Shown here: one piece after another, positions 41,546 through 45,585 of the stretch
Position numbering within the stretch: position 1 is the first letter of the stretch
Layout: every line of letters begins with the position of its first letter
Assembly (NCBI RefSeq): GCF_024298765.1
Contig: NZ_CP101210.1
Source of the DNA: Escherichia coli
GTDB taxonomy: Bacteria; Pseudomonadota; Gammaproteobacteria; Enterobacterales; Enterobacteriaceae
Reading direction: 5' to 3' (one strand)
DNA: 64,000 nucleotides
Translations under genes and position numbers: made by a program
The notes under the pieces: generated by a model
Told to the model about the DNA's origin: nothing
The model's database searches: none
What the model saw: the letters and a program-made list of their open reading frames with translations, nothing else

Positions 41546-42823
41546 ATGAATAAAATAAAGAATTATCGATGGTATATGATTGCCCTCGTATGCTTTATCA
41601 CTGTAATCAATTATCTGGACAGAACGGCGTTAGGTATTGCGGCTCCAACGATTATGGAGACAACCGGAATAACCAAAGAACAATATTCATGGATTGTCAG
41701 TGCATTCCAGTTGGCCTATACATTAGGGCAACCGGTAATGGGCTTCTTTATTGATACCGTGGGTCTGAAGTTAAGTTTTGCGATATGTGCCGCAATTTGG
41801 GGCCTGGCGACAATGGGCCATGCACTAACCGGAACGTGGTCTGGTCTGGCATTTATGCGCGCCCTGATGGGTTTCAGCGAAGCGTCGGCAATTCCGGCGG
41901 GTGTAAAAACCGCATCAACATGGTTCCCGGCAAAAGAGCGTGGCGTGGCGACAGGTGTTTTCAATATGGGCACCTCACTCGGCGCGATGCTTGCTCCACC
42001 GTTGATTGCCTGGTGCATTATGTTTCATAGCTGGCAATTTGCGTTTATTGTTTCAGGTAGCCTTGCTTTGCTCGCGGCTTTATTTTGGTTCTTTTGTTAT
42101 AAAGATCCGAAAGATGCCAAACGCCTTTCTGATGAAGAGCGCCACTATATTGAATCAGGACAAGAACAGCATCTTAAAACAGATAAGAAAGAAAAAACAT
42201 CAATCAAGCATATCCTCAGCCAACGTAATTTCTGGGGGATTGGCATCGCGCGTTTTCTCGCAGACCCGGCATGGGGAACCATTAACTTCTGGGTGCCGAT
42301 TTTCTTCGTCGAAACGCTGCATTTTAGCCTGAAAGAAATTGCCATGTTCGTCTGGCTGCCTTTCCTGCTGGGCGATCTCGGCTGTTTAGCCAGTGGTTTT
42401 GTCGCGAAGTTCTTCCACGATCGCGGCGTGAGTTTAATTAACTCACGAAGAATTACCTTCACTATTGCAGCCGTCATTATGATGACGATTGGCCTGGTGA
42501 GTATTGTCGAAAATCCCTACATTGCCGTATTACTGATTAGTATTGGCGCGTTCTCGCATCAATGCCTTTCTACTGTAGCAGCAACTCTGGGTGGCGATCT
42601 GTTCAAAAAAGACGAAGTAGCTACCGCAGTGGGTATGGCAGGAGCCTGTGCGTGGAGCGGTCAGTTGATTTTCAACCTGTTCATCGGGGCATTCGTTCAC
42701 ATTATCGGCTTCGCGCCGTTCTTTATTGCCCTGGCTTTCTTTGACATTATTGGCGCCATTGCGCTGTGGATGCTTATCAAAGTTAAAGACGAAGAACTAC
42801 AAGTACAGTTAGCGACAAGCTAA
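41546..42823 (+). CDS. MFS transporter (anion:cation symporter family, hexuronate/glucarate-transporter-like)
   Basis: 425 aa 12-TM ORF; N-terminus NYLDRTALGIAAP typical of ExuT/GudP-like carriers. Confidence 0.82.
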   Translation: MNKIKNYRWYMIALVCFITVINYLDRTALGIAAPTIMETTGITKEQYSWIVSAFQLAYTLGQPVMGFFIDTVGLKLSFAICAAIWGLATMGHALTGTWSGLAFMRALMGFSEASAIPAGVKTASTWFPAKERGVATGVFNMGTSLGAMLAPPLIAWCIMFHSWQFAFIVSGSLALLAALFWFFCYKDPKDAKRLSDEERHYIESGQEQHLKTDKKEKTSIKHILSQRNFWGIGIARFLADPAWGTINFWVPIFFVETLHFSLKEIAMFVWLPFLLGDLGCLASGFVAKFFHDRGVSLINSRRITFTIAAVIMMTIGLVSIVENPYIAVLLISIGAFSHQCLSTVAATLGGDLFKKDEVATAVGMAGACAWSGQLIFNLFIGAFVHIIGFAPFFIALAFFDIIGAIALWMLIKVKDEELQVQLATS

Positions 42824-42832
42824 TTATTTTAC

Positions 42833-42875
42833 ATAGAAACGCTATAATTTAGCTTTGTAGCGTTTCTATTTTTCT
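42833..42875 (+). terminator. Rho-independent terminator after the MFS gene
   Basis: ATAGAAACGCT...AGCGTTTCTAT 11-bp stem followed by TTTTCT. Confidence 0.6.
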
Positions 42876-42960
42876 CATAAATTAAACGTCTCTTCCAAAA
42901 CGTTCAGTATCTACTGGCATTGCTTCGCAAATTTATGATTTAGATATCAAAATAACTATT

Positions 42961-44228
42961 CTAAATTGCCCCCCTGAATGCCTCTGCCATTAACTCTTGC
43001 TCACGACCAGGTAATCGAAGACGCTCGGCAATGATTCGCCACTGACTGACAATCCCTCTAAAATTAGCAATAATGTCATCTGCTTCTGTCAAACCAAGTC
43101 GAAAATACTCCGCAACTTCTCGAGCTAATTCCAAATCAAGTGCATTATCATTTCTGTAATATTGAGTTTTAGACCGTCAGACCTGGCAACAGGATTCAAA
43201 TCATATGCCTCAGAAAGCCGCCAACCTTTTCCCGGTATCAAGATATATCCATGATTACGTAAATGGTCATCGGTATTAGAAACAAGAATATTAAAAACAA
43301 TCCTGGACCAGAGTTCCTTAAGGTCAGTATTAGTCTGCGCTCCATGTCTGATAAGAACATCTGCTAATTCCAGATAACTCACACCTGTAGAGGCATCTTC
43401 ACCATCCTGATGCCTGGTTAGTGTCATAGCCGAAGCAAAATGCAGACGCCTTCCCGCATTAGTGCGGTCAAAACGACGAACCATAAAACAATGGTAATTG
43501 CTGGCAAATTTATGCGCCTGAGCAGGTGCAACATTCAGTCCACAGCCAACAGCAAGTGCATTAACGACCATTTCCCATCCACCAACATCATACTCATCTT
43601 TTACACTGGGAAATTTAGCGATGTAGAGATGCCCAGCTTCATCAACAACACTGGCTTTCGGACGTGCCCCCCCTAATGATCCCCCCGGAGCGATTAGCAT
43701 TCTTAACCATTTTTGCCCCATTAGCTCTTTATTATCAGGATCTTCTTCAATTGCCCGGCTAGCCCTTTCCAGACTCGCTATTTCGGTAAATGGTGGGGCT
43801 GCAACATCAATGCGATTATCAAGAAACTCTCCAGCGTCTTCACGTTTGTATCGAAGAGCCCCAACCCGATAAAGATCATGAACACCTAGTAGATAATCAG
43901 ACTCATAAAGGTGGGAGTCTTTATCACATAACCCGTCTCGAATATCCCTCTCAAAACGACGCTTCATTAGCATACGCCCCCAACGATCCGGGCAGGAATC
44001 ACTAAATGCACCAAATTTATCCTTTGGAGGAATTGGGTACTGTGCTCCCTCATACAACATTATTTCAGGATCTAACTGAATGAAATTAAGTGAAGGATCT
44101 GCAAGCGCCTTTTTATCGTACTCAAACTCAAATATCTCACGCGTCCGAGTGCGGCGACTGTGTAAATAACCAATCCGCTCCGGACCATCCAGGCCTTCCC
44201 AATCCGCATACACTCCGATTAATGCCAT
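42961..44228 (-). pseudogene. HipA-family serine/threonine kinase toxin, frameshifted (367-aa ORF plus ~56 codons continuing in another frame)
   Basis: HipA motifs (APGGSLGGARPK, DDHLRNHG, AYDLNP); ORF stops at 43125 but frame continues to stop at 42961 after a 1-nt shift in an A run near 43151-43153. Confidence 0.7.
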
Positions 44229-44230
44229 AA

Positions 44231-44722
44231 TTAATTTCCTTTTAACGGTTTTTTTATCGGTTTTAATAGTGCTGCAAGAGAGGTTGATGTTTCTCCTGTA
44301 ATAGATGGCGTCGAGCCTTCTGCCAGTGCTGTTAAATCCGTGGTGAGATGACCTTCTTTCTCGTGCCTCATCTGCAATGAGGCTGTCTGAGAACCTTCTT
44401 CATTCTTACTTGATGCACGAGAAAGCCCTCTTTTTTTAATCAAACGGGAATCCTGGAGCTGACGCCCTAAGTCGTCTTCAGCTGCAAGCTTATTTAAATC
44501 CGTTTCCAGGCCCAAAACCTGCATCACAGACAAATATGCCCCTATCGTGACCCCTGCACTTCCTGACTCCAGAGAGCGCAATGTTATTGGCGACATCCCA
44601 GCACGTTCAGCAACTTGCTTTGCGGTAAGCCTGCGTCGTAAACGAGCAAGTTTCAGCCGCTCACCAAATTCACTAAGCATCTGATTCGTATAAGGGAGTA
44701 ACGGTGCTGTTTTTTTACCCAT
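44231..44722 (-). CDS. HipB-like XRE-family HTH antitoxin with long Ser/Thr-rich C-terminal extension
   Basis: 163 aa; [26 protein letters not shown]; stop 2 nt before hipA-like start. Confidence 0.75.
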
Positions 44723-44742
44723 AGTGATAATATTTTATCTTT

Positions 44743-44763
44743 TTATGGCTATGATAGCCATAA
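44743..44763. promoter_or_regulatory. Perfect 21-bp palindrome TTATGGCTAT-G-ATAGCCATAA upstream of hipB-like gene (candidate autoregulatory operator)
   Basis: 10-bp arms, 21-41 nt upstream of the hipB-like start codon. Confidence 0.4.
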
Positions 44764-45076
44764 TATTAGCATTTATTGGATTGAACGCACCTGCAAAGCG
44801 TTCAAGATTACGAAAGTGATGGTATTTTATCTTTTTATATATAAAAACAATAAAATAACAGCACATTCATATATAACATATTGTTTTTATTATCATACAA
44901 GTGAGACGATCGCTGTATTGATGCTTTTGTCGTGTTTTACGCGTAAAAAACATGACACGAACTACCAGCGGCGAGGCTGGGGGCCAGGTATGGGTACTGC
45001 GAACTTTTTATAAAAGGAATAGCAAGAGATTTATGGAGGGAACGTCTGTTTCTGCGGTTTTTATCACTTAAAAGCA

Positions 45077-45103
45077 AAACGCCGACCACTGGTCGGCGTT
45101 TTT
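45077..45103 (-). terminator. Rho-independent terminator downstream of rplI (bidirectional in appearance)
   Basis: GCCGACC-ACT-GGTCGGC hairpin flanked by A-run and T-run. Confidence 0.65.
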
Positions 45104-45123
45104 ACGTCTCGTTGAATAACGAA

Positions 45124-45585
<462 letters not shown>

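Follow-up and report, generated by a model that had tools for sequence, protein, structure and literature searches.

A 64,000-nucleotide (nt) stretch of Escherichia coli DNA (contig NZ_CP101210.1 of RefSeq assembly GCF_024298765.1; hereafter "the window," meaning the whole stretch) contains on its (−) strand a hipB-like gene, xre-3 (44231 to 44722), followed by a gene for a HipA-family kinase. On balance, we lean toward the view that the long C-terminal tail of this HipB is a disordered leash carrying a terminal kinase-docking motif, on a HipB-type antitoxin and autorepressor of a HipA-family module, a reading that draws on structure models. HipA kinases are the founding members of the persistence toxins; their restraint by HipB is known for just two systems, which differ from each other. 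A helix-turn-helix (HTH) domain joined by a long disordered leash to a terminal docking motif would make a third layout beside these two. The long-tailed HipB family is widespread (Enterobacterales, Pseudomonas, Burkholderia, and Achromobacter) and, apart from one structure from 2026, uncharacterized. Should the motif indeed clamp the kinase, a ~20-residue peptide would be testable as a binder of, or a probe for, this kinase clade.

A HipB-type protein with a conserved N-terminal domain

In the list of open reading frames (ORFs) of the window, the hipB-like gene comprises 163 codons plus a TAA stop codon (44233 to 44231), with the ATG of the kinase gene, whose product carries a HipA_C domain, following 2 nt later at position 44228. 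The predicted 163-amino-acid (aa) product is a 100% match to RefSeq WP_000516891.1, labeled "helix-turn-helix domain-containing protein" (E. coli strain 104, identical DNA), and homologues were detected down to an E-value of 1e-92. Pfam HTH_31 matched residues 18 to 75 (E = 6.6e-11), and HTH_3 also matched; together with the length of the ORF, this bears out a preliminary description of the gene as encoding a HipB-like XRE antitoxin far longer than the HipB of E. coli K-12.

Further analysis of the homologue alignment revealed that conservation is concentrated in residues 1 to 94 (44441 to 44722, [−] strand), which comprise an invariant N-terminal peptide of 10 residues, the XRE HTH (residues 18 to 75), and a further helix with the pattern D-x-L-G-R-x-L-Q-D. 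This region hosts 50 invariant positions, and the 51st is L149, in the terminal motif described below. Residues 1 to 99 matched the HipB of Pseudomonas fluorescens 2P24 (PDB 9U9G, released 2026-04-01) with an E-value of 9.5e-31. In comparison, the protein fell well below the cutoffs of the NCBIfam models for established HipB groups and is a member of neither: it scored 17.1 bits (cutoff, 79) against NF007271, the K-12 HipB equivalog, and 30.3 bits (cutoff, 71.65) against TIGR03070 (Y4mF/couple_hipB).

The tail combines a variable linker with a conserved terminal motif

Homologues of 150 to 185 aa that were 56 to 68% identical across 95 to 100% of their length were found in Salmonella, Serratia, Yersinia, Erwinia, Pectobacterium, Enterobacter, Azotobacter, Stenotrophomonas, Burkholderia, and Achromobacter. 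We assembled a set of 80 related genome loci containing 77 full-length HipB proteins, of which 72 unique sequences were used for a motif table. Among the 77 full-length proteins, the tail beyond the N-terminal domain measured 55 to 186 aa (median, 70), with a median composition of 21% Ser plus Thr and 18% Lys plus Arg. The preliminary description had put the tail of the window protein at ~90 aa; the long extension is real, but domain conservation reaches residue 94 to 99, which leaves a tail of ~69 aa (residues 95 to 163). The same description called the whole tail low-complexity and Ser/Thr-rich, which holds for the variable linker (codons 95 to 143; 44294 to 44440, [−] strand) but not for the conserved 20-aa end (codons 144 to 163; 44234 to 44293, [−] strand). 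Specifically, the middle zone of the alignment (45 to 70 residues) contained zero conserved columns, and the window linker consists of 27% Ser plus Thr, 14% Lys plus Arg, and 12% Asp plus Glu.

It had also been suggested that absence or lack of conservation of the extension in related loci would point to a mis-called stop. We found the extension in 77 of the 77 full-length relatives, and a mis-called stop is refuted by this recurrence. The broader notion that the extension is an annotation artefact, either a wrong stop call or non-coding read-through, has a negligible chance of being correct: in 77 loci spread over many genera, the stop keeps its position relative to the start of the kinase gene, and both the tail and the terminal motif are found again, and we found nothing in favor of it, given that the shorter, 294-nt listing of this gene in strain NRG857c stems from an internal start, with the stop unchanged.

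Alignment of the 72 unique sequences by anchoring at their terminal leucines revealed the motif [T/S/N](−4) [T/S/A](−3) x x L(0) [A/S] x L(+3) [L/I/F](+4), followed by three to five Lys/Arg residues, and this motif was always located 11 to 19 aa before the C-terminus (79 sequences). In the window protein, it reads T145-S146-x-x-L149-A-x-L152-L153-K-P, followed by a Lys/Arg cluster. Next, we searched 1.8 billion cluster representatives (50% identity) with the N-terminal domain alone as the query, which yielded 125 representatives bearing the signature of this domain; 111 of these 125 had a tail of at least 40 aa (median, 77). A relaxed motif with hydrophobic residues at positions i, i+3, and i+4 occurred in the last 32 residues of 91 of the 111 long-tailed representatives, compared with 12 by shuffling, and in 19 of 156 linker windows (12%). 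By contrast with the long-tailed majority, 12 of the 125 representatives were short-tailed and ended in a Lys/Arg cluster only, which, together with the Hymenobacter pair described below, indicates that the tail is an accessory of a large proteobacterial clade and no requirement for pairing with this kinase family. Distant HipB relatives of 104 to 117 aa, e.g., on Hymenobacter and Thiothrix plasmids, had neither leash nor motif and likewise ended in Lys/Arg residues.

The terminal motif is predicted to become ordered in the presence of the kinase

Since the kinase gene is frameshifted in the window (see below), AlphaFold2 was run on HipB joined through a 30-residue Gly-Ser linker to the intact kinase of E. 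coli LF82, using an alignment of the same fusion for 30 natural pairs, and on HipB alone as a control. The N-terminal domain had a predicted local distance difference test (pLDDT) score of 82 to 83 in both models. The variable linker scored 30 to 43 in both and is accordingly predicted to be disordered; over residues 94 to 141, pLDDT was about 30 in the fusion model and below 45 in both. The end of the tail behaved differently in the two runs. In the fusion model, residues 141 to 150 and 151 to 160 reached pLDDT values of 81 and 69, respectively, with a two-residue beta-bridge at 144 to 145 followed by a helix at 146 to 150, whereas the corresponding values for HipB alone were 51 and 57, with no bridge. 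Thus, only the terminal motif gained confidence on addition of the kinase, and the N-terminal domain, being equal in both runs, served as an internal control. Because the HTH domain is all-helical and has no strands, the bridging strand must come from the kinase in this model. For the free tail, 9U9G offers experimental support for disorder, as just 77 to 85 residues per chain are modeled out of a chain of 153 aa. Taken together, the models predict a disordered linker and docking of the terminal motif on the kinase.

In the mechanism that we propose, residues 1 to 94 would form a DNA-binding, dimerizing HTH domain that probably recognizes conserved arms flanking its own promoter and ribosome-binding site and, by analogy with other HipBA pairs, probably also contacts the kinase. 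A leash of ~50 intrinsically disordered residues would end in a short amphipathic helix and a basic patch. With the kinase present, the terminal motif would fold on it as a second, tethered contact, which would help keep the toxin inactive and probably also shield the free end of the antitoxin. We infer from this arrangement both neutralization of the toxin and autoregulation by HipB. Due to the frameshift in the kinase gene, the HipB of the window is an orphan, which most likely only represses its own promoter.

Known antitoxins provide partial precedents. In typical type II antitoxins, neutralization of the toxin depends on a C-terminal segment that acquires its fold on the toxin (PMC3376134). 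A direct precedent that supports the docking reading of the extension is HipB of Shewanella oneidensis: its flexible C-terminus lacks order in the free protein and takes on an ordered form inside a hydrophobic HipA pocket (NAR 2014, PMC4150777). Like the protein described here, Shewanella HipB is an XRE antitoxin encoded upstream of a full-length HipA, with an extra N-terminal segment and a C-terminus that becomes ordered on HipA; however, its tail is ~10 residues long and ends in Gly-Trp-Tyr, in place of a leash of ~50 residues, an L-x-x-L-L helix, and a basic cluster without a terminal Trp, and the two kinases share only about 17% identity. In outline, AtaR, Phd, and RelB are built likewise, with a DNA-binding domain at the N-terminus and a disordered C-terminal region that gains structure once on the toxin, but their folds and toxin classes are unrelated, and the contact here is a short motif placed beyond a long spacer that is not conserved. 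HipB of P. fluorescens 2P24 belongs to the same family (N-terminal domain 60 to 61% identical; Foldseek target template modeling [TM] score, 0.75 to 0.81) and has a similarly long C-terminal extension (153-aa chain), although it comes from a different genus. A literature search returned no paper on PDB 9U9G or on 2P24 HipB, and no structure of the cognate kinase is deposited in the PDB.

Several observations weigh against docking as the role of the tail. The modeling evidence comes from one model of both proteins fused into a single chain, for which the alignment had just 31 sequences, and the fusion and HipB-alone models were built from different alignments. In K-12, removal of the HipB tail left the affinity for HipA unchanged (PMC3376134). 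Furthermore, a Hymenobacter plasmid encodes a full-length kinase that is 55% identical and is paired with a 107-aa HipB lacking both linker and motif, which stops 12 residues past the N-terminal domain; the tail, therefore, cannot be indispensable for neutralization. Finally, the motif is kept in the orphan hipB genes of at least eight related loci from other genera with neither a kinase nor a replacement toxin downstream, and also in most E. coli carriers, where the kinase is dead.

Alternative roles of the tail

The preliminary description had offered a degradation tag and a phosphorylation substrate as roles for the tail. That the tail is mainly a degradation signal, i.e., that Lon or another AAA+ protease recognizes the disordered extension together with its hydrophobic and basic end and makes free HipB short-lived, strikes us as rather unlikely, even if some degron role is plausible from the K-12 precedent. 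In K-12, the unstructured 16-aa C-terminus of HipB is needed for degradation by Lon, confers instability on green fluorescent protein, and is unneeded for binding either HipA or DNA (PMC3376134). The tail described here is likewise predicted to be disordered, is unresolved in 9U9G, and retains its motif in orphan hipB genes, all of which speak for a degron. However, the final residues vary among family members (…KGN, …GEK, and …DKQ), unlike C-terminal ClpX-type tags, and the i, i+3, i+4 hydrophobic pattern is typical of a binding helix whose predicted confidence rises only with the kinase. A degron would be compatible with docking, which could protect it. A role independent of the kinase, in which the basic end and the helix contact DNA or a second HipB dimer and thereby help bridge operator arms ~40 bp apart, appears improbable to us. 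It would account for the persistence of the motif where the kinase has been lost or, in E. coli lineages, is dead, for the Lys/Arg cluster that still ends the short-tailed relatives, and for arms that are spaced 25 to 29 nt apart, too far for a single HTH dimer. On the other hand, the motif is not packed on the HTH domain in the HipB-alone model (pLDDT, 51 to 57), the gain in confidence needs the kinase, and loss of the kinase may be merely recent.

The idea with the weakest support among the roles considered is that the tail serves the kinase as substrate or pseudosubstrate, with Ser/Thr residues ahead of the terminal helix being phosphorylated or occupying the substrate site and so switching antitoxin binding; we regard it, too, as improbable. 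All 72 unique sequences carry a Ser or Thr at −4 or −3, counted from L149, and a comparison by eye shows that the E. coli segment S-L-A-A-L-L-K-P loosely resembles the Gly-rich loop S-L-G-G-A-R-P-K of the kinase. Nevertheless, only one hydroxyl position, right ahead of the terminal helix, is semi-conserved: 15 of the 72 sequences have Ala at −3, and 27 have Asn at −4. Ser or Thr is the usual N-cap where a helix begins, and the modeled helix begins at residue 146. The Ser/Thr residues of the linker, for their part, show no positional conservation. The Ser at −1 and the Lys-Pro at +5/+6 occur in only part of the family, and we rejected mimicry of the Gly-rich loop as a family-wide property of the motif because the residues that it requires are conserved in this part only. 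We found no report of HipA phosphorylating HipB in a literature search. In a more specific version, T145/S146 would be phosphorylated, or would act as a pseudosubstrate like the Gly-rich autophosphorylation loop of the kinase, such that the toxin sets the strength of its own restraint. This version seems to us a shade more doubtful still; if true, it would give a HipBA module a novel means of gauging the toxin:antitoxin ratio. Of all these readings, the one that we favor remains a disordered leash with a terminal docking motif.

The kinase partner and its inactivation in E. coli

The hipA-2-like kinase gene of the window (42961 to 44228, [−] strand) is a pseudogene, tagged "frameshifted" by RefSeq and split into ORFs of 367 aa (43125 to 44228) and 57 aa (42961 to 43134). 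A DNA alignment with the intact gene of strain LF82 (422 aa, WP_001173917.1) located the lesion to a 1-nt deletion in an A-run at ~43151, in codon 359, which costs the window kinase its last 63 residues. Correspondingly, the HipA_C profile matched the window kinase over profile positions 2 to 175 of 213 (E = 1.4e-44) and the intact LF82 protein over positions 2 to 213 (E = 4.7e-46). The preliminary description took the tight spacing as a sign of a bicistronic module. The 2-nt gap and the recurrence of a full-length pair in 62 of the 80 loci support this part, but the frameshift in the kinase gene of the window had been missed. In these 62 loci, a full-length kinase (415 to 430 aa, 60 to 80% identical to that of LF82) directly follows hipB, with a gap of −4 (ATGA overlap), −1, or +2 nt, in both gamma- and betaproteobacteria.

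Across 31 kinase sequences, the Gly-rich loop GGSLGGxRPK, the catalytic DDHxRN, and the YD motif were invariant. The kinase model aligned with E. coli and Shewanella HipA over ~460 to 480 columns (Foldseek E-value, about 1e-12; TM score, up to 0.71), although by sequence it is distant from K-12 HipA, and its best sequence match in the PDB was to HipT chains (E = 2e-8). Among the NCBIfam models, no HipA equivalog matched the kinase, and only YjjJ gave a hit, below threshold; the match to Pfam Couple_hipA was also below threshold (E = 0.11). HipA families have been defined by gene organization (Gerdes et al. 2021, mBio). A co-oriented HTH gene lies directly upstream of the kinase gene, the intact allele has the four core kinase motifs (Gly-rich loop, activation loop, catalytic motif, and Mg-binding motif), and its product is full-length and, unlike HipT, retains the N-terminal subdomain; by this definition, the locus is a hipBA-type module of two genes. 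A motif search of about half of their Table S1 (Hip tree clades I to XI) found no members of this kinase family.

The locus differs from two other systems that it resembles. As in K-12 hipBA, an HTH antitoxin gene precedes that of a kinase with the HipA fold (Foldseek E-value, 8e-13), and HipB ends in an unstructured C-terminal tail, but K-12 HipB has only 88 aa, and its 16-aa tail is a Lon degron that is dispensable for HipA binding (PMC3376134). A K-12-type hipBA is found elsewhere in the same strains, listed as a locus of its own, hipBA-1 (PMC7232551). HipBST (E. coli O127:H6 and Legionella) matches the module described here in combining an upstream HTH HipB with a kinase of the HipA superfamily whose catalytic motif is H-L-R-N; however, HipBST includes a hipS gene, and its neutralizer is HipS, not HipB. 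Here, no hipS intervenes in the 2-nt gap, and the kinase, being full-length in the intact allele, keeps its N-terminal subdomain, which places the locus outside HipBST.

Inspection of other E. coli alleles revealed further kinase lesions: an extra G in the G7 tract of THO-006, several G insertions plus an internal stop in MS1170, a C deletion at kinase nt ~505 in AZ146, and one deletion in E2348/69 (O127:H6), which has another deletion in the A7 tract of hipB. Overall, hipB was intact in five of the six E. coli alleles inspected; the E2348/69 frameshift, at codon 156 (Lys-Lys right after LLKP), changes only the basic C-terminal end. Using junction-specific queries of 40 to 42 nt, we found the A deletion of the window in 72 genomes and the AZ146-type C deletion in 545, so that, counting those two deletions, the kinase is dead in at least 617 of the 1,040 E. 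coli carriers (59%). The kinase has been inactivated independently several times in E. coli lineages while hipB was retained, which makes the E. coli population a natural experiment in which the toxin was lost repeatedly and the long-tailed antitoxin was kept. The Gly-rich loop APGGSLGGARPK (window ~43660 to 43690) is encoded by G6 and G7 tracts, and the G8 tract in THO-006 and MS1170 shifts the frame; the G8 alleles could represent either on/off variation of the slippage type or homopolymer sequencing errors.

A candidate operator upstream of hipB

Inverted arms of the type TGCTAATATT … AATATTAGCA were found upstream of hipB across genera. The distal arm has the consensus (A/G)TGCTAATATT at about −51 to −41, where it doubles as an extended −10 element (TGnTAATAT); its copy in the window (44763 to 44773) reads AATGCTAATAT on the coding strand. 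The proximal arm (consensus AATATTA(G/T)CAC; 44723 to 44733 in the window) ends at the ATG and overlaps the ribosome-binding region. With at least 9 of 11 matches required, the arm pair occurred in 66 of 79 loci, compared with 7 of 79 shuffled controls, at a spacing of 25 to 29 nt. In the Pseudomonas loci, both arms are altered together (AATATT to ATTATT in one and to AATAAT in the other), and this concerted change fits a symmetric protein-binding site. Judging from these sequence patterns, the inverted arms are likely to be the HipB operator, and a hairpin in the 5′ untranslated region is also possible. A perfect 10+10 palindrome, TTATGGCTAT-g-ATAGCCATAA, is located between the two arms (44743 to 44763); we rejected it as a conserved operator, since it is E. 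coli-specific and does not occur in the other genera examined. An Rfam scan of positions 42500 to 45300 returned nothing at threshold.

Prior record, distribution, and surroundings of the locus

The locus corresponds to hipA-2/xre-3 (TA28), reported as a putative type II toxin-antitoxin pair of the adherent-invasive E. coli strains NRG857c and LF82 (Front Microbiol 2020, PMC7232551); its standing as a functional type II pair is likewise putative, with the repeated independent frameshifting of the kinase and the retention of hipB as indirect evidence. That study placed the pair between rps genes and a fatty-acid metabolism cluster, noted that it is not in K-12 and that both genes are pseudogenes in CFT073, and found that bile salts raised hipA-2 mRNA 8- to 32-fold (PMC7232551). 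Xre-3 (NRG857_21370) was entered there as 294 nt with no recognized domain (PMC7232551). This entry corresponds to 97 aa counted from the internal Met67 and leaves out the HTH domain, whereas the invariant N-terminal peptide found in all relatives identifies Met1 as the true start; the layout of Xre-3 as an HTH domain plus tail was not noticed in that study.

The LF82 DNA, from the same chromosomal locus, is 98.6% identical to the window; the kinase is intact (422 aa) in LF82 and NRG857c and frameshifted here. Of the 21 substitutions between the window and LF82 over 1.9 kb, 16 fall in a 68-nt linker-coding patch (44350 to 44417; hipB codons 103 to 125), where they cause nine amino acid changes, whereas the adjacent kinase gene differs at just two positions. 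The patch reflects either recombination over a short tract or local hypervariability. The LF82-type allele is similar to its E. albertii counterpart. Within the patch, the window allele, unlike that of LF82, contains a 7-bp hairpin (GCCTCAT-ctgca-ATGAGGC; 44365 to 44383), which may be due to chance.

We found the locus in 1,047 of 5,426 complete E. coli genomes, chromosomal every time. Phage genomes contained no copy, and merely nine plasmid records contained a relative; a comparison with the PADLOC anti-phage catalogue gave generic HTH matches only, plus a chance-level match to the kinase. Three avian E. coli strains (CT30, EC31, and EC12) have an IS2 insertion inside the 2.3-kb module stretch. 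In the window, the module lies on the E. coli chromosome, with rplI-rpsR-priB-rpsF and the ula operon to its right and an accessory cluster of coenzyme A-transferase, oxidoreductase, and major facilitator superfamily (MFS) transporter genes to its left. Between the kinase gene and the convergent MFS-transporter gene, a pattern scan picked out a terminator-like hairpin at 42833 to 42869 on the (+) strand.

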